IMG/VR virus record: IMGVR_UViG_3300010214_000002
Location: 1-54,133 of that record
Length of the DNA stretch: 54,133 nucleotides
Origin: a virus
Lineage: Duplodnaviria > Caudoviricetes
Reading direction: 5' to 3' (one strand)
Position 1 is the stretch's first letter; each line of letters starts with the position of its first letter. Of the stretch, positions 12,062 through 39,297 are shown piece after piece. The notes under the pieces are model-generated. The model was not told the origin of the DNA, ran no database searches, and saw only the letters and a list, made by a program, of their open reading frames with translations. A program made the translations under genes and the position numbers.

Positions 12062-12841
12062 ATGCAAGCACAAAAGTTCTACAGCAGCAAGAGCAACGCC
12101 GCCCGCGCCGCCAAGGCAGCCTTCGGTGAAGACTTCAAGAACCTGACCAAGCTGGTTGAAAACGAGCAAGGCTTTGCCTACGTTGAAGCCGACACCGACG
12201 TGATTGAAGTTTCCGCCCCGGTCAGCAAGCGCCAGCAAGCCGAACACGCTATCAAAGTCGTGCAAGGCATGATCGAGCAAGCACAAAGCATGGCAAACAT
12301 CGCCGTGTGCGAAAAGGCGATTGCTGGCCTGTACGATGCTCGTGAAATCGAAGAGGGCGTGTACAAGGCGCTGCTGAAGCAAGCCAGCGAACGCGTCGAA
12401 GCACTGGCAAGCGCAGCAGGGGAAGCAGAAGCCCACGAAGCGGCCCGCCTGCAAGCCGTCGAAGATGCCAAAGCAAACCCCTTCAACTGCCGGGTGTGCC
12501 CGGTGTGCGGAAGCGCCGATATTTATCATGGCATCGGCGACGAAAAAACCGGAATGGTTGTACGCGAAACCGAAGTCGGCGGCTGCCATCACTGCGACTG
12601 GACATTCGACATCGGCAAGCGCCGTACCAGCGTGATCGACAACCCCTGCCGCGCCGTGTGGGAGATCGCCGATCAGTTCAAAAAGGCCAACGGCGGCGAG
12701 CGCCCGCGTCGCAAGGATGTGCTTGAAGCCTGCGCACAGGCTGGCATCGCGCACTACACGGCTCGCACTCAATACCAACTGTGGCTGACCACGCAGAAGG
12801 AAATGGAACAACGCGCCGCACAACAGGCTAAAAAAGCCTAA
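12062..12841 (+). CDS. Hypothetical protein with Zn ribbon and C-terminal repeated helical domain (paralog 1)
   Basis: AGGAG RBS; CPVC...CHHC; C-terminal VWEIAD...VLEAC...GIAHYTARTQYQLW. Confidence 0.8.
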   Translation: MQAQKFYSSKSNAARAAKAAFGEDFKNLTKLVENEQGFAYVEADTDVIEVSAPVSKRQQAEHAIKVVQGMIEQAQSMANIAVCEKAIAGLYDAREIEEGVYKALLKQASERVEALASAAGEAEAHEAARLQAVEDAKANPFNCRVCPVCGSADIYHGIGDEKTGMVVRETEVGGCHHCDWTFDIGKRRTSVIDNPCRAVWEIADQFKKANGGERPRRKDVLEACAQAGIAHYTARTQYQLWLTTQKEMEQRAAQQAKKA

Positions 12842-13054: not shown

Positions 13055-13066
13055 TTGGAGGCAACC

Positions 13067-13765
13067 ATGCCTGAAACTTTTATTGTTATCGACCTTGAAA
13101 ACCCGAAGGTTGTTAAGCGCACCAATGACTATCGCGCTGCAACCCTCTGGGCCGACACCGACTTCGCAACCAAGTCAACCCACGTTAGCGACCTGTGCGT
13201 GCGAGCGTTCAGTTGCCTGACCGAACTGAGCTTGATCAAGCTGTACAAGAACACGTTCGGGGAAGACTTGGGCCTGCGCCCATATGCCGACATGCTGCGC
13301 GCCTGTTATTACAGGTCGCTCGAGCTGCCTGTAGACGAGACGCCCGTTGCAACGCTCGAGTTGGCACACAAGCACATGATGCAGGGGTTGTACCCGCTTC
13401 ACAGCGACAAGCCCCTGCCCCTGCCGCCTGAAAACGGCCCCACAGACCCCGAATGGCGGGCCATGCTGGCCGAGGCTGGGCACCTAGTACCCCCAGTACC
13501 TACGCCGGGCGGTAACGGCCACAGCACCCCGCCTAGCCACCGTAGCACGCCGAGCCCGGCGCAGCGGCCGAAGCCCGGTAGTACCACGGCGCGCGTGTGG
13601 GACATCTGCGACGAGCAGTTGAAGAAGACCGGCCAGAAAAGCATTGCCGGGCTGAACATGAAAGACTTTCGCGTCGTAGTTATGAAGGCGTGCGAGGCCG
13701 AGGGCATCAACGATTCCACAGCCGCTACCCAGTACGGCAAATGGAAATCCTCACAAGTGATCTAA
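13067..13765 (+). CDS. Hypothetical protein with C-terminal repeated helical domain (paralog 2)
   Basis: GGAGG RBS; RPKPGSTTARVWDICD...ACEAEGINDSTAATQYGKW. Confidence 0.8.
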   Translation: MPETFIVIDLENPKVVKRTNDYRAATLWADTDFATKSTHVSDLCVRAFSCLTELSLIKLYKNTFGEDLGLRPYADMLRACYYRSLELPVDETPVATLELAHKHMMQGLYPLHSDKPLPLPPENGPTDPEWRAMLAEAGHLVPPVPTPGGNGHSTPPSHRSTPSPAQRPKPGSTTARVWDICDEQLKKTGQKSIAGLNMKDFRVVVMKACEAEGINDSTAATQYGKWKSSQVI

Positions 13766-13801
13766 AACGTCTTTGACGGGGGAGTGGCTGGCATTTACCA
13801 T
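13760..13801 (+). promoter_or_regulatory. Sigma70-like promoter with conserved upstream motif
   Basis: ATCTAAAACGTCT-TTGACG-N17-TACCAT. Confidence 0.65.
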
Positions 13802-13869
13802 TCAGCTACTCCCGATTAAACGAGTTTTTCGCCTGCCACTAACAGGCCCACCAACCACCGGAGATCAGC

Positions 13870-14364
13870 ATGACCGATGCAGCAAACAAGACCGAAAACA
13901 CCACCGCCGCACCCGCTGCGCCGGTCAAGGACGAACGCAATGGCGTGACCCGCCCCAAGGACGCAAATGGCGCGACCGGAAAGGTCTGGGCCATCGCAGA
14001 CAAGCTGTCGGCCTCACTGGAACGCCCGGCTACCCGTGGTGAAGTGCTGGCCGAGGGCCAGAAGCAGGGCGTGAACCCGGCCACGATCACCACGCAGTAT
14101 GGCCGCTGGTGCAAGTATTACGGCCTGAAGAACACCTCGGCCGCAGTTCAGCAAGCAGCCAAGGACGCGAAGGCAAAGGAAAAGGCCGATGCAAAGGCCA
14201 AGGCCGACGCCGACAAGGCAGCCAAGAAGGCTGAAGCCGACAAGGCCAAGAAGGAAAAGGCCGACAAGGCTGCGGCCGACAAGAAGGCCAAGGCTGACGC
14301 CGCTGCTGCTGCCAAGGCCAGCAAGGCGCAAGTCACGCCTCCGCCCCCGGCACCGGCACAGTAA
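13870..14364 (+). CDS. Putative nucleic-acid-binding protein: repeated helical domain (paralog 3) plus histone H1-like Lys/Ala-rich tail
   Basis: GGAG RBS; RPKDANGATGKVWAIAD...GVNPATITTQYGRW, then AKDAKAKEKADAKAK repeats. Confidence 0.8.
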   Translation: MTDAANKTENTTAAPAAPVKDERNGVTRPKDANGATGKVWAIADKLSASLERPATRGEVLAEGQKQGVNPATITTQYGRWCKYYGLKNTSAAVQQAAKDAKAKEKADAKAKADADKAAKKAEADKAKKEKADKAAADKKAKADAAAAAKASKAQVTPPPPAPAQ

Positions 14365-14930
14365 GAAGGCTCGCGACGCGGCTGGCTCAGCCCAGTCGTT
14401 CCAGTGGGGGCGGCACCCCCAGTCGTAAAACCGCCCGCCCCTTCGGGGGCGTCATAAGAAGCTGGTTCCTGAATCGCAGCCCTCATGCTGGGGCTGGAAG
14501 GCTGCGATGCGTGGGGGCGCGTAGGGACCAGCCCCTTATGATTTCCTAGCGTGGCTGCGGGCCGTTGTTCCTTGTCTTGCGCAGGGGGCTTCGGTCGCGG
14601 TGCTCGGTGAACGTCTTCTTTCAGGGTGCGCCACCCTTTAGCTGACCTACCGTAGCACCGCGACCGAAGCTGGCGGCAGCCTTATCACCTGCTCATGCCG
14701 AACGGCCTGATAAGCCTAGTACGTTGATGGTACGTGTCGCCTTGAAAACGGCATTACGACCAGCTTCCCGGAGCCTGCTCCGGGGTGCGCCCTCTATGTC
14801 CTGCTCGGTACTGCTTAGATCTCCCCGGTCGAACAATCGTGACACAGGCACTGAGGGCGCACCCCAGAGCAATGACCCGCTCTGTCTCCCAAGGCCCCGT
14901 TCTGTTACCCGGCAGACGGGGCTTCTTTTT
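14365..14930 (+). ncRNA. Putative large structured non-coding RNA / structured 3' UTR
   Basis: No credible ORF; UUCG-capped hairpin 14437-14450; long stems 14452-14541, 14588-14670 (perfect 17-bp IR), 14776-14871 (perfect 13-bp IR), 14681-14714; ends in a terminator. Confidence 0.5.
14892..14930 (+). terminator. Rho-independent terminator
   Basis: AGGCCCCGTTCTG...CAGACGGGGCTT followed by CTTTTT. Confidence 0.8.
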
Positions 14931-14974
14931 GACTCAACCTTTTGTAGAAGCCTTATGCGCCGCGCCAGTGTGGG

Positions 14975-14985
14975 CAACGTATAAT
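14975..14985 (+). promoter_or_regulatory. Possible -10 box of the que operon promoter
   Basis: Perfect TATAAT at 14980-14985, 26 nt before the queE ATG and after the terminator; no good -35. Confidence 0.4.
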
Positions 14986-15011
14986 GGCCCTAACCGCCTA
15001 CAGGGGAACCA

Positions 15012-15701
15012 ATGAAAGTCATCAACATCCAGCCCATTGAGCGCCGGACTATCGGCAACGGCTCGGCACTGGACATCCACTCCATCTTCCATACGATTCA
15101 AGGCGAAGGCCCCTTCACTGGGCGGCCTGCTGTATTCATTCGCTTGGCCGGATGCAATCTGCAATGCCCGGCATGCGATACCGAGTACACGCAGGGTCGC
15201 GACGTGCTGCCTGTGCACGACGTGATTGAGACAGTCCGGCGCATGGCGCACCCATCCAAGGCAATGGTAGTGATCACTGGTGGCGAGCCGTTCAGGCAAA
15301 ACCTGTCGCAGCTCGTCAGCCGTCTACACGACTCTGGATACGACATCCAGATCGAGACGAACGGCACAGTCGCACCGGAAGACTTCCCTTACGAGCTGGT
15401 TAGCATTGTTGTCAGCCCGAAGGCTGGCAAGGTGCAGCCGGGTTTGTTCCCCCATATCTTGGCGTACAAATACGTCATCTCTCACGAGTTCCTGGACACC
15501 GATGGGTTGCCCACACGGGCGCTCGGCGGTGTGCGCCCGGCACGTCCTCATGCAGAATTCACGGGCGAGGTCTACGTCAACCCGCAGGACGACAAAGACC
15601 CCTTGATCAACACGTTCAATCAGAACGCAACCGTTCACGTAGCCTTGCGGTTTGGCTACACCTTCGGGCTTCAAGTCCACAAGCTCATCAACATGGAGTA
15701 A
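15012..15701 (+). CDS. queE: 7-carboxy-7-deazaguanine synthase (radical SAM)
   Basis: IFHTIQGEG...VFIRLAGCNLQCPACDT (CxxxCxxC), ITGGEP, IETNG, VSPK, QVHK. Confidence 0.95.
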   Translation: MKVINIQPIERRTIGNGSALDIHSIFHTIQGEGPFTGRPAVFIRLAGCNLQCPACDTEYTQGRDVLPVHDVIETVRRMAHPSKAMVVITGGEPFRQNLSQLVSRLHDSGYDIQIETNGTVAPEDFPYELVSIVVSPKAGKVQPGLFPHILAYKYVISHEFLDTDGLPTRALGGVRPARPHAEFTGEVYVNPQDDKDPLINTFNQNATVHVALRFGYTFGLQVHKLINME

Positions 15702-16772: not shown

Positions 16773-17211
16773 GATCGGCCTGAGCTGTTGCTTCCGCCAG
16801 CACCGGGCGGACTCGCATTGCCGTCTTCTGCACGGCTATGCGCTCTCGTTCAAGTTCACCTTCTGCGCAGAGGACGATGATCTGGACGTGCGCAATTGGG
16901 TTGTAGACTTCGGCGGCCTCAAGTCGTTGAAGGCCATGCTGGAAGACACGTTTGATCATACGCTGCTGGTGGCAGATGATGACCCAAAGCGCGAGGCGCT
17001 GCTTGAGCTTGGCAAGCTAGGCTTGGCCCGTGTAATCTGCGTGCCTGCCACTGGATGCGAAGCTGCTGCGCGCATGGTCTTCAGCTGCACGAAGCAGTGG
17101 CTGCGCGACGCGGGCTACGCTGGCCGGGTTTGGCTCGAGTCCGTGGAAGTGGCGGAGCACGGAGCTAATTCTGCAATCTACCAAAACAACGACGCGCACC
17201 CCTACAGGTAA
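16741..17211 (+). CDS. queD: 6-carboxy-5,6,7,8-tetrahydropterin synthase
   Basis: CRLLHGY, WVVDFGGLK, FDHTLL, C-terminal VEVAEHGANSA. Confidence 0.93.
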   Translation: MYKSTKRYGHEIGLSCCFRQHRADSHCRLLHGYALSFKFTFCAEDDDLDVRNWVVDFGGLKSLKAMLEDTFDHTLLVADDDPKREALLELGKLGLARVICVPATGCEAAARMVFSCTKQWLRDAGYAGRVWLESVEVAEHGANSAIYQNNDAHPYR

Positions 17212-17214
17212 TTC

Positions 17215-17817
17215 ATGTACAAAGATCACACAGACGAACACGTCCACACCGCTACGGTAAAGGTGACGCCCATGCGCGCCGTCGAGGCTGTGCGTACCAT
17301 CCTGGACTACATCGACCCGGACCCCATGCGCGCAGGCATTGCCGAAACGCCGCAACGTGTGGTTAAAGCCTTCGGTGAATGGTTCAAGGGCTACGAGCAA
17401 AATCCAGCCACAATCTTGAAGGTGTTCGAGGACGGGGCGGAGGGCGTTGATGAAATGGTGTTGGTTGGCCCCATTCCGTTCTACTCGCACTGCGAACACC
17501 ACATGGCCCCGTTCTTCGGCGAGGCGTGGGTTGGCTACATCCCCAACGGCAAGATTGTCGGCCTGAGCAAGCTGGCCCGGCTGGTGGACTGCTTTGCGAA
17601 ACGCCTGCAAGTGCAGGAGCGCATCACTGTTCAGGTGGCCGACGCACTCGTCGAACACTTGCAGCCAAAAGGCGTTGGCGTCGTGCTGAAGGCTCGGCAC
17701 ATGTGCATGGAGTCGCGCGGCGTGTGCAAGGCTGGCAGCCACACCACCAGCTCCGCCCTCCGTGGTGTGATGAAAGATGCAGCACCCCGTGCCGAGTTCA
17801 TGTCGTTCGTACGATGA
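17215..17817 (+). CDS. folE: GTP cyclohydrolase I
   Basis: ETPQRV, SHCEHHMAPF, GLSKLAR, RLQVQERIT, HMCMESRG. Confidence 0.95.
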   Translation: MYKDHTDEHVHTATVKVTPMRAVEAVRTILDYIDPDPMRAGIAETPQRVVKAFGEWFKGYEQNPATILKVFEDGAEGVDEMVLVGPIPFYSHCEHHMAPFFGEAWVGYIPNGKIVGLSKLARLVDCFAKRLQVQERITVQVADALVEHLQPKGVGVVLKARHMCMESRGVCKAGSHTTSSALRGVMKDAAPRAEFMSFVR

Positions 17818-18713
17818 AGCTATACCTCGCAGCCCTCTACACGAACAACCTTCGCAAAGGCTCTACAGCTTATGAGAAGTGTTCACCCCGTGAACAGAAG
17901 GCTCGCGACGACGTGCGTTACTTGCTGGATTCGTATCACTACATCCACAAGCAAACGCACGTCGACCGCATCCGGCAAGACGGGGCTAAGGTGTTCCTTG
18001 ACTCGGGCGCGTTCTCTGCGCACACGATGGGCGTGTCTATCGACTTGCCGGAGTATTGCGAGTACATCAAGCGTAACGCTGACATCATTGAAGTGGCGTC
18101 GGTACTGGACGGCATTGGTGATCCGCTCAAGACATACCAGAACCAAAAGGCCATGGAACGACTCGGCGCTAATGCGCTGCCATGCTTCCACTATGGGGAG
18201 GACGAACGCTATCTGGACTACTACATCGAGAACTACAAGCACATGACGCTCGGCGGTATGGTGATGGTTTCAACAGACCAGCTAAAGCTCTGGCTTGACC
18301 GTATCTGGGAGCGTCACTTGTGCAACCCGGACGGCACGGCCAAGATCAAAGTGCATGGGTTTGGTTTGACCACACTGTCGCTCATGGTGCGTTACCCGTG
18401 GTACTCGGTCGACTCGTCGTCGTGGGTTCAGATGGCCGGTAACGGAACGATCTTGCTGCCCGGCAACCGCGCGCTATCGGTCAGTGAGAAGAGCCCGCAA
18501 CGCAAGGTGGCCGGGCAACACATCGACACGATTACACCGCTGCAACGTAAGCGTGTCTGCGAGATGATTGAAGAAGAAGGCTTTGACATTCACCGGCTGC
18601 AAACCGAGTACGTCGCGCGCTGGGCGTACAACTGCCATGCCTTCACCCGCCTCAACAAAGAGATTGAAAGCAAACCCCCGGTCTTTGTGCCGGATCAAAT
18701 AGGACTGTTCTAA
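17814..18713 (+). CDS. dpdA: DNA 7-deazaguanine transglycosylase (TGT-like)
   Basis: FLDSGAFS, VLDGIGD, PCFHYGE, LGGMV, KVHGFG, SVDSSSW motifs; ATGA-coupled to folE. Confidence 0.85.
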   Translation: MKLYLAALYTNNLRKGSTAYEKCSPREQKARDDVRYLLDSYHYIHKQTHVDRIRQDGAKVFLDSGAFSAHTMGVSIDLPEYCEYIKRNADIIEVASVLDGIGDPLKTYQNQKAMERLGANALPCFHYGEDERYLDYYIENYKHMTLGGMVMVSTDQLKLWLDRIWERHLCNPDGTAKIKVHGFGLTTLSLMVRYPWYSVDSSSWVQMAGNGTILLPGNRALSVSEKSPQRKVAGQHIDTITPLQRKRVCEMIEEEGFDIHRLQTEYVARWAYNCHAFTRLNKEIESKPPVFVPDQIGLF

Positions 18714-18714
18714 C

Positions 18715-18930
18715 ATGGCCCATCATCAAGCGATCACGATTGCGCTGGCTATCACGGAAGTGCCCCCAGAAGAACGGCACGAACTGTACCACGAGGTGCA
18801 GAAGGAACTCGTGCGGCTGAACCAGAATTACCAAGCCAGTCTCTTCAACCTGATCGGCGTATGCGACAGTAAAAGCATTGAACCGCTGAACTTGCTGGTG
18901 GCTGCACTGAGGGGAGCTATCCGTGCTTGA
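18715..18930 (+). CDS. Hypothetical protein
   Basis: Fills the gap between dpdA and the clamp gene; overlaps the clamp start. Confidence 0.55.
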   Translation: MAHHQAITIALAITEVPPEERHELYHEVQKELVRLNQNYQASLFNLIGVCDSKSIEPLNLLVAALRGAIRA

Positions 18931-39049: not shown

Positions 39050-39297
39050 TTCTTAGCGTTCCTCAATGCTTCTTGCCGCCGTGCGTACTCTTCTTCTACA
39101 TCCATCGCCTCGTGCATGTCTGCGAGATCGTTCAATGTGTACGTACCATCGCAGAGTTCACGGTACGTACACAGCGGCGGGTCACGCAGAACAGGTCGCC
39201 AGATGTACCAACTTATGTTGGCGAGTTCGATTGGTTCGACGCTTGGCCCTTCTTGCCGAGTTGGCCGAAACGTGAGCGCACGGCGTTGGTAAAATCC
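39046..39297 (-). CDS. Tail assembly chaperone, downstream (gpT-like) segment; start uncertain, possible -1 frameshift product
   Basis: WYIWRPV...LCTYRELCDGTYTLNDLADMHEAMD motif; lies in the -1 frame relative to the upstream chaperone; coupled to the TMP start. Confidence 0.65.
   Translation of the reverse strand, partial: GFYQRRALTFRPTRQEGPSVEPIELANISWYIWRPVLRDPPLCTYRELCDGTYTLNDLADMHEAMDVEEEYARRQEALRNAKK

Follow-up and report, generated by a model that had tools for sequence, protein, structure and literature searches.

A lineage-specific, multi-helix non-coding element beside the 7-deazaguanine genes of a wastewater phage

Introduction

The virus record IMGVR_UViG_3300010214_000002 is the complete genome of a tailed phage from wastewater (54,133 bases, with direct terminal repeats), and is called the window throughout, meaning the whole stretch of DNA analysed. 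Between a gene for a 164-aa protein and the 7-deazaguanine gene QueE, this genome has a long stretch without genes, inside which lies a folded element of about 490 nt (14434-14931) that is the subject of this work. A preliminary description, made from the sequence alone, had seen here an undescribed phage non-coding RNA or an array of three hairpin RNAs, possibly forming a ribonucleoprotein with the co-transcribed 164-aa protein. We compared the locus with that of its closest relative found, the complete genome G001 (53,543 bases; its QueE locus is L015, the name used below), which is 72% identical over a 46.6 kb alignment.

Results

A gene-free stretch with exceptional folding

The features of the locus are as follows.

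13773-13801, + strand: predicted sigma-70-like promoter, TTGACG-17-TACCAT, a match to the consensus, heading the transcription unit
13870-14364, + strand: open reading frame (ORF) of 164 aa, with a predicted beta-hairpin and three-helix domain (residues ~20-85) and a long Lys/Ala/Asp/Glu helix (86-152)
14365-14433, + strand: variable spacer, outside the conserved element; 69 nt against 146 nt in L015
14436-14451, + strand: H1, a cUUCGg hairpin without a U tract, having a UUCG loop and a 6-bp G+C stem in which all 6 pairs are invariant
14452-14541, + strand: H2, a compound hairpin of 90 nt; z -6.3 (+) and -7.5 (-)
14542-14594, + strand: joining segment B, conserved; the block scored as linker B is 14538-14594 and overlaps the end of H2
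14587-14671, + strand: H3, a long hairpin with perfect 17-bp arms; lowest 7-8 pairs conserved, the rest free
14664-14730, + strand: joining segment C with H4 (14678-14717; 10-nt arms, 20-nt loop), the best-conserved block
14728-14762, + strand: "mid" hairpin; of its 7 pairs, 4 differ on both sides between the genomes and one U.G is common to them
14755-14770, + strand: joining segment D, in which 14758-14767 could pair with 14666-14674 (GAAGCUGGC)
14776-14871, + strand: H5, a long hairpin whose apical loop has a conserved UCCCC-type motif; z -4.9 and -6.1
14896-14931, + strand: predicted intrinsic terminator, a stem plus CTTCTTTTTG (stem 14899-14922, tail TTCTTTTTGA)
14942-14985, + strand: conserved TTGTAGA...CGTATAAT stretch, outside the element and upstream of QueE (15012-15701)

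In a rough map drawn with a gene picker based on G+C content at third codon positions (GC3), the largest gene-free stretch of the genome is 14365-15011, with 647 nt. The two other large gaps of that map are taken up by ORFs (440 aa and 106 aa), so that the locus is indeed the largest non-coding stretch of the genome, as had been claimed. No frame of it has the GC3 signal of the flanking genes, its internal ORFs gave no match in PHROG (0 of 6) or Pfam (0 of 5), and the stretch is non-coding. ORFs of 94 aa were observed at the same place on the - strand of both genomes (14693-14977 in the window, 2697-2981 in L015); their two products are not alike (13 of 35 residues identical, E 0.27), though the DNA is 57-93% identical.

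Folded as RNA, 14365-14935 reached z scores of -8.72 on the + strand and -8.02 on the - strand, and 0 of 100 shuffled sequences folded as well; the strong base pairing of the preliminary description is thus well beyond that of shuffled sequence. As single-stranded DNA (ssDNA), 14434-14935 gave a z score of -8.34. The whole genome holds 11 inverted repeats of at least 13 nt with their arms within 150 nt, and two of the top three lie in this stretch. All the features named in the preliminary description, including the UUCG hairpin, the compound stem and the perfect 17-bp and 13-bp repeats, were located, at positions within 1-3 nt. The inverted repeats are these.

14452-14470/14523-14541: outer repeat of H2, 19 nt, 84%
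14473-14484/14497-14508: inner repeat of H2, 12 nt, 92%
14588-14604/14654-14670: repeat of H3, 17 nt, 100%
14678-14687/14708-14717: repeat of H4, 10 nt, 90%
14776-14794/14853-14871: repeat of H5, 19 nt, 95%

Conserved joining segments and free hairpin interiors

L015 has a gap of 748 nt between the homologous small gene and QueE, and the same element lies inside it (region fold z -6.1). We define the conserved element as 14434-14931, about 490 nt with seven helices: H1, H2, H3, H4, the mid hairpin, H5 and the terminator. The region was cut at anchor words shared by the two sequences and each piece was aligned separately. The joining parts proved to be well kept: H1 is 95% identical, segment B 88%, segment C with H4 93%, and segment D 81%. 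Identity falls to 47% in the interior of H2, 42% in that of H3, 50% in the mid hairpin and 57% in H5, and is 83% in the terminator. For comparison, the 164-aa gene is 76% identical in nucleotides and QueE 80%, while the spacer between the stop codon and H1 is unrelated (39% identical columns). Judged from these alignments, the pattern is that of a structured-RNA core with variable arms, in which the joining parts are kept and the hairpin interiors are free.

At the level of columns, linker B is identical to L015 in 51 of 58 and segment C with H4 in 62 of 67, with 17 of the 20 positions of the H4 loop conserved; a 60-nt window in segment C is 0.917 identical. The hairpins themselves differ in length, being 90, 94 and 113 nt in the window and 76, 123 and 138 nt in L015 for H2, H3 and H5, respectively. 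Each of the three nevertheless folds alone in both genomes (z -3.6 to -7.5, with 0 of 200 shuffles as good). H3 gave z scores of -6.7 and -7.5, and the counterparts in L015 gave -6.1 and -5.3 for H2 (76 nt) and -3.6 and -5.6 for H3 (123 nt).

Covariation was assessed by projecting the window's own hairpins onto a sequence-only MAFFT alignment with L015, with partners slid by 1-3 columns as a control. Paired cells amounted to 82.8% against 34-42% after sliding, a figure inflated by the fact that the structure was drawn from one of the two sequences, and pairs changed on both sides to 15 of 155 against 2-7; none of 500 shuffles reached either value. RNAalifold counted 19 of 101 pairs changed on both sides. 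Among the 23 pairs of H5, 15 are invariant, 4 changed on both sides, 1 changed on one side and 3 are broken. The signal is clear in such alignable parts, H5, the terminator and the mid hairpin. Pairing is therefore kept in a relative of 72% genome identity, with compensatory change, and the description of an undescribed, structured, non-coding element stands on this and on the lack of any Rfam match reported below.

A third, closer copy is partly present in a contig of run X2. It differs from the window at 14 of 363 positions of the small gene and at 0 of 174 positions of 14434-14607 (Fisher p 0.007), and 14365-14433 is replaced in it by 140 other letters. Since the spacer is replaced and 14434-14607 is unchanged, the conserved unit begins at H1. 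At this short distance the element appears, from the sequence comparison, to be held tighter than the adjacent gene; recent recombination could give the same picture. In place of the window's spacer, both L015 and the run X2 contig have about 140-146 unrelated bases, which could reflect a deletion in the window or an insertion in the others. Four runs were compared at 80% likeness and yielded short contigs only; the parts they leave uncovered are not evidence.

Some of the conserved bases could have two partners. RNAalifold proposes a helix between 14562-14575 and 14581-14594, with a nine-pair core that includes four U.G pairs; one pair is changed on both sides and the others are invariant. 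It also proposes a helix of 9 pairs between 14666-14674 and 14758-14767, with one change from G-C to G-U, which would close a three-way junction around H4 and the mid hairpin. Both helices compete with the base of H3. Imposing the second of them carries a penalty of 9.6 kcal/mol for the window and of 3.0 for L015, and we infer it as an alternative, modelled helix. Bases that have to fit two partners would explain why the base of H3 is frozen while the rest of H3 drifts. Four pyrimidine-rich words are conserved and unpaired: UUUCCU and GUUCCUU in segment B, CUUCCCG in segment D, and UCCCC in the H5 loop, a region where TCCCCGGT is conserved in the alignment with L015.

Predicted signals for transcription

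The promoter upstream of the small gene, TTGACG-N17-TACCAT, and the strong terminator after the non-coding stretch, both noted in the preliminary description, are present (13773-13801 and stem 14899-14922). Promoter-like sites number 2 in 1.7 kb, against 0.3 in shuffled sequence, and L015 has its promoter at 1652-1680 with identical hexamers and spacing. The - strand of 13500-15200 yielded no promoter-like site. At 14896-14931 a G+C-rich stem-loop is followed directly 3' by a U tract, as in an intrinsic terminator. Its upper stem has 3 pairs changed on both sides in L015 and is thus conserved and co-varying, and it should act in one direction, since no A run precedes the stem.

From these signals, the element is likely transcribed on the + strand: promoter and terminator on this strand are conserved and bracket it, the terminator is one-directional and co-varying, the element fills the space between stop codon and terminator, and a promoter-like site on the - strand is lacking. 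The earlier proposal of a + strand RNA is in this way supported by the setting of the element and not by its pairing, which is strand-neutral.

Downstream of the element, 14942-14985 also reads TTTTGTAGA...CGTATAAT, a pattern that occurs once in the genome. It contains a perfect -10 word (TATAAT) and no -35 word at 17 nt; a -35-like word stands 31 nt upstream of TATAAT, so that the stretch does not form a standard promoter. It is possibly an activator-dependent middle promoter. The distance from segment C to this QueE promoter region is 285 nt in both genomes despite several indels.

A restricted distribution

A DNA search found the element in one of five complete relatives, G001, and no copy elsewhere in the five genomes. 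A QueE search of IMG/VR returned 12 loci, of which L015 is close (87% amino acid identity) and 11 are distant (42-52%); cultured phages are distant too, the top QueE identity being 52%, to Vibrio phage VpKK5. Among the 11, seven (L016, which is VpKK5, L018, L019, L020, L022, L023 and L026) have the small gene followed by QueE within ~60-135 nt, with one G+C hairpin in most of these short gaps; that of L019 has a UUCG loop, with TTTT behind the hairpin. At this place there is an extra ORF in L021 and there are other genes in L024, and L017 and L025 (GC 0.39 and 0.36), which the GC3-based picker could not read, were left out. A query with the 164-aa protein gave 6 distant loci, with no gap after the gene.

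The relatives' single hairpin, the lack of a U tract at H1 and the presence of one after H5 suggest to us that ~480 nt were inserted behind an old terminator stem. H1 would then probably be the former terminator stem of the small gene. By comparison of these sequences, the element is an insertion of ~480 nt that is particular to one lineage and brings along a U-tract terminator. The extra ORF of L021 (2399-2986, 195 aa, no PHROG family) is unrelated to it and stands at the same junction, which thus seems to collect accessory material.

The window holds no second copy, a self-comparison giving the self-match and one internal inverted repeat only. A miniature inverted-repeat transposable element, or a palindromic element derived from an insertion sequence, was considered and rejected, as several copies would be required. 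No further homologue was found in viral, metagenome and genome collections with five word patterns. The 17-nt word of the H3 arm hit 6 viral loci, with all matches at most 31 nt long; two linker words hit L015's contig alone; a linker word gave 5 metagenome matches, all of 19-29 nt and due to chance; two patterns gave 0 and 1 match in genomes, the latter a chance match inside a gene of an AT-rich metagenome-assembled genome; and a pattern of the H3 base hit 9 viral loci, all of them unrelated terminator-type hairpins. In a blastn search of 50,697 phage records the non-coding part was unmatched, and the coding part (~13900-14330) was matched, almost all through its Lys/Ala tail.

No match to known RNA families

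No Rfam 15 family matched at the gathering score anywhere in the window, GOLLD, ROOL, OLE, preQ1, group I and II introns, 6S and HEARO included. ARAGORN found no tRNA or transfer-messenger RNA (tmRNA) gene in the whole genome, and the earlier remark that no known RNA core is recognisable holds for these as well. At E <= 10 there were 8 weak Rfam matches in the window and 7 in L015, mostly to microRNA precursors, which reflects the long hairpins. One match alone is common to both, that of a 16-nt UUCG hairpin to PhotoRC-I (E 0.17 and 0.18).

Two known kinds of element were considered for this position and rejected. A preQ1 or other riboswitch for the deazaguanine operon has no Rfam match here, a separate promoter-like stretch follows the terminator, and relatives have the operon without the element, whose link to that operon is by position only. 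Class C group II introns insert behind terminators; no Rfam intron match was found at E <= 10, and no reverse transcriptase among the 32 larger proteins that were scanned.

The 164-aa protein

The ORF and the small helical domain of the preliminary description are present, the protein model having a predicted local distance difference test score (pLDDT) of 82. The tail is not simply basic, as had been stated: residues 93-164, one long predicted helix, contain 19 K+R and 11 D+E. Tandem repeats were found in this Lys/Ala coding tail alone. The protein matches phrog_18634, phrog_11298 and phrog_7864, all of unknown function. With Foldseek, the domain had no PDB match at E <= 0.001; the best was weak, to the sigma-factor chain 1l0o_C (E 0.57), and lower rows include sigma region 4 and RNA polymerase-sigma complexes. 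VIA-align matched the long helix alone, to coiled coils (Z ~6), and in BFVD 11 models match the domain at E <= 0.001, including one that its depositor called "transcriptional activator".

Homologues of the 164-aa protein stand upstream of QueE at 7 loci without the element, which occurs in one of the five complete relatives. Since the protein family occurs without the element, the two do not go together, and the ribonucleoprotein that had been suggested is unsupported.

Three consecutive genes, 12062-12841, 13055-13765 and 13870-14364, have a common domain of ~65 aa (NGVxRPK...VWxIxD...TQYxxW). The first two carry it at their C-terminus, the third at its N-terminus. This domain occurs in many phages, and the same gene series is found upstream of QueE in distant relatives.

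Discussion

The element between the small gene and QueE is structured, its pairing is conserved with compensatory change, it has no coding signal, and it is restricted to one sub-lineage. We consider it probable, with moderate confidence, that 14434-14931 is a lineage-specific functional non-coding element working as folded RNA. Compensatory upkeep within a transcription unit mostly concerns RNA structure, relatives with the same replication genes do not have the element, and the spacers of 49-58 nt between its arms speak against cruciforms. According to this reading, the promoter at 13773 would drive + strand transcription of both gene 13870-14364 and the element, and the element would form the ~500-nt tail of an early transcript that ends at its own intrinsic terminator (14896-14931). 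The tail would fold into one multi-helix unit from H1 to the terminator, in which H2, H3 and H5 may serve as structural arms, free in sequence provided that pairing holds. The working core would be the joining segments B, C with H4, and D, together with the C-rich H5 loop, and this core might interact with a protein or with another RNA, or else engage in tertiary or alternative pairings. Because the best-conserved parts lie between the hairpins, a single multi-helix unit fits better than the array of three independent hairpins offered in the preliminary description; the structured non-coding RNA of that proposal is the part that we retain. Since relatives carry nothing or an unrelated gene at this junction and the element brings its own terminator, it could be an accessory, "moron"-like RNA.

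What such an RNA would do can be narrowed down only tentatively. It is a tenable possibility, short of an even chance, that the element acts in trans on a host or phage partner. We are more doubtful of an action in cis, through the stability or processing of its own transcript or through read-through into the QueE operon. It is tempting to speculate, and we offer this only as a conjecture with the odds against it, that the two genomes hold the founding members of a new class of large (~490 nt) phage RNAs: an accessory, moron-like gene joined to an early mRNA at its 3' end, with junctions and C-rich loop acting in trans on a host or defence component (by regulating through several seeds, by sponging up a protein or as a decoy), and with the alternatives at the H3 base switching its shape.

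Several observations weigh against a folded RNA. The preliminary description took G-T appositions in the stems as favouring an RNA on the + strand, and this argument fails, because the pairing is neutral between strands: arm-against-arm alignments of four hairpins in two genomes gave 13 G.U against 18 A.C on the + strand, the latter being G.U on the - strand, so that there is no + preference. In both genomes the - strand favours H5, by 10-15 kcal/mol of minimum free energy, and also H4; H2 and segment B are more stable on the + strand and H3 is mixed; RNAalifold gives -123.1 for + and -120.1 for -, and the ssDNA fold is equally exceptional (z -8.3). Perfect arms of 17 bp and 13 bp would also be expected from upkeep of a palindrome at the DNA level. 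The covariation is one pairwise comparison, as there are two full copies and one partial copy; the interiors of H2 and H3 are not alignable position by position, helices 3 and 5 pair in 60-65% of cells, and the alternative pairings proposed for the conserved H3 base involve invariant bases and hence no covariation. Nor are the linkers uniquely conserved: 3.2% of 60-nt windows genome-wide are at least 0.90 identical and 1.2% at least 0.93, and none of the 30 longest exact matches that the two genomes share (26-64 nt) falls within the element. Duplex energies of the linkers with 70 phage translation starts were no better than with random windows. None of the 8 listed runs that contain the stretch is on record as RNA, which gives no verdict on transcription.

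Much of this would suit hairpins that act in DNA when single-stranded or extruded, as a priming or initiation signal for the phage's own primase and helicase, similar to the single-strand initiation sites of plasmids, or as a site for a structure-specific protein, with the linkers as the sequence-specific part. The hairpins fold as well on one strand as on the other, and also as DNA; H2 is better on the + strand and H5 on the - strand in both genomes, as suits signals on opposite strands; G.U and A.C are balanced and the 17-nt and 13-nt arms perfect; and the phage encodes a 795-aa primase, a helicase, SSB, a Sak4-like annealase, a Cas4-like nuclease and a DNA polymerase. The word TAGCGT in segment B recalls the CS-6 word of single-strand origins of rolling-circle plasmids, which we take as a candidate only, the chance expectation of a 6-mer here being ~0.3. 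Yet four of the five complete relatives have the same replication genes without the element, so that it is not the conserved origin; it sits exactly within the + transcription unit, from the stop codon to a co-varying U-tract terminator; long loops do not favour cruciform extrusion, and its arm spacers measure 49-58 nt; and there are no iterons or direct repeats in the non-coding part and no GC-skew turning point at the element. We therefore regard a DNA-level element as unlikely, without dismissing it. Given that the element ends the unit where relatives have one terminator hairpin, and that its last hairpin has the make-up of a true intrinsic terminator, it might also be a plain stack of terminators or 3' stabilising hairpins, which would require neither a conserved core nor any partner other than RNA polymerase and host RNases; long imperfect duplexes in phage early transcripts are cut by RNase III in T7 and lambda. 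But a U tract follows only 1 of the 7 helices, stabilisers need neither linkers of 45-67 nt at 88-93% identity nor a 20-nt loop kept at 17 of 20 positions, and in the relatives one hairpin suffices, all of which makes this explanation quite improbable.

A decaying or selfish insert without phage function, be it the remnant of a mobile element or duplicated terminator hairpins behind the old terminator stem, would account for the lineage-specific occurrence and for the start directly 3' of a terminator-like stem without U tract. Two sequence features would suit it as well: GAAGC, GCTTC and the motif GGGGCTTC recur in both genomes at the foot of hairpins and in the tail of the terminator, and the left end (TCATAAGAAGC) agrees at 10 of 12 positions with the reverse-complemented right end (TCAAAAAGAAGC). 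We judge it very improbable, since neutral decay would not keep linkers at 81-95% and the pairing of three hairpins at 72% genome identity, nor leave 0 of 174 changes beside a gene with 14 of 363; moreover, no second copy turned up in the genome, none elsewhere in the genomes of the five relatives, no further homologue in the searched collections, no group I or II intron match in Rfam, and no reverse transcriptase, transposase or integrase among the 32 larger proteins. Hardly any credence is left for a protein- or peptide-coding function. The 94-aa ORF on the - strand (14693-14977) has the same length and place in both genomes, and an ATG ORF of 10 codons in the H4 loop is open in both; against this, the 94-aa products are unlike, the stretch lacks GC3 periodicity and database matches, the alignment indels are not multiples of three, and the 10-codon ORF has no Shine-Dalgarno word.

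Returning to the folded RNA as the preferred reading, its nearest parallels are the large RNAs GOLLD, ROOL and OLE, of which GOLLD and ROOL are frequent in phages and prophages. The element has the traits of a large ornate non-coding RNA as a kind, not as a family: ~490 nt, 7 helices, conserved junctions and compensated variable stems. In the portions of the literature drawn on here, GOLLD, ROOL and OLE are described as RNAs of ~500-800 nt with many helices, conserved joining nucleotides and variable stems, whose biochemical function is unknown (PMC12286853, PMC9723947), and to that extent the element resembles them in size class, helix count and conservation pattern. Unlike them, it has no Rfam match to these families at E <= 10, occurs in two genomes only, has no tRNA gene near it or anywhere else in the window, and lies at the 3' end of an mRNA instead of being a free-standing gene.

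RNAIII of Staphylococcus aureus and the RsaE/RoxS type are multi-hairpin regulatory RNAs with C-rich unpaired seeds. The element is like RNAIII in having ~500 nt, many hairpins and unpaired pyrimidine-rich words; it differs from these RNAs in that it has no sequence or model similarity to them and that phage translation starts are not enriched for complementarity. A blastn-short search for antisense targets, with the linkers against both genomes, gave matches of at most 14 nt with E >= 0.035 among the matches listed. The best antisense start site, at 17526, is void, as it lies within coding sequence.

In the RNase III processing hairpins of the T7 early region and of lambda sib, position is kept more than sequence. 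The element shares with them long imperfect duplexes after an early gene, on the sense strand, and differs in having three hairpins of 80-120 nt in a row, with conserved linkers and without genes between. The single-strand initiation and origin signals of plasmids and the attC sites of integrons work on one DNA strand and conserve the pairing of hairpins. In the element, too, pairing and not sequence is kept; yet both strands fold equally well, the carrier is a tailed phage with direct terminal repeats and no integrase or rolling-circle protein among the 32 proteins scanned, and the element, which sits within a transcription unit, is missing from relatives whose replication genes are the same.

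A survey of more than 10,000 candidate structured RNAs in viruses retained, according to the portion of the article used here, motifs of 29-151 nt found in at least three IMG/VR 3.0 regions (PMC10690425). With these limits of size and region count it would not have caught the element, and six supplementary files of that article do not mention the sample number of L015. A limited literature search found no published description of the element, though one may exist.

Accessory loci described in phages mostly encode proteins; large structured RNAs are few, and the best-known ones have no established function. Here one small lineage gained an RNA-like element of ~490 nt whose arms evolve freely while its junctions are held. 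If it is RNA, it would be a compact system in which to ask how a phage benefits from a molecule of this kind, with a defined transcription unit and, as a natural control, close relatives without the element. If instead the hairpins act in DNA, they would make an unusual structure-defined site in a tailed phage. The weight of the case is limited for now by evidence from two genomes.

Other features of the genome

The comparison with PHROG covered the 32 larger ORFs. Sheath, baseplate and tape-measure genes mark the phage as tailed. Replication and recombination genes comprise the 795-aa primase, the helicase, a DNA polymerase with a clamp-like factor, SSB, the Sak4-like annealase, the Cas4-like nuclease, endonuclease VII and RusA, and the 7-deazaguanine genes are QueE, QueC, QueD and one for a tRNA-guanine-transglycosylase-like protein. 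No reverse transcriptase, transposase, integrase or rolling-circle protein was found among these 32.

A 179-aa protein encoded on the - strand at 296-835 has phrog_645, labelled "Rnase E", as its top PHROG match. The label looks misleading, as Pfam sees helix-turn-helix families alone, below cut-offs (HTH_23, sigma-70 region 4 and Terminase_5). The rough gene map leaves a gap of 314 nt at 17211-17526, yet an alignment with G001 at 80% identity spans 17260-18717; since the sequence upstream of 17526 reads as coding, either the start of the transglycosylase-like ORF is mis-set or there is an extra gene. The longest inverted repeat of the genome lies elsewhere, in the gap after the tape-measure gene (39119-39190), with arms of 29 nt that are 76% complementary and 14 nt apart.

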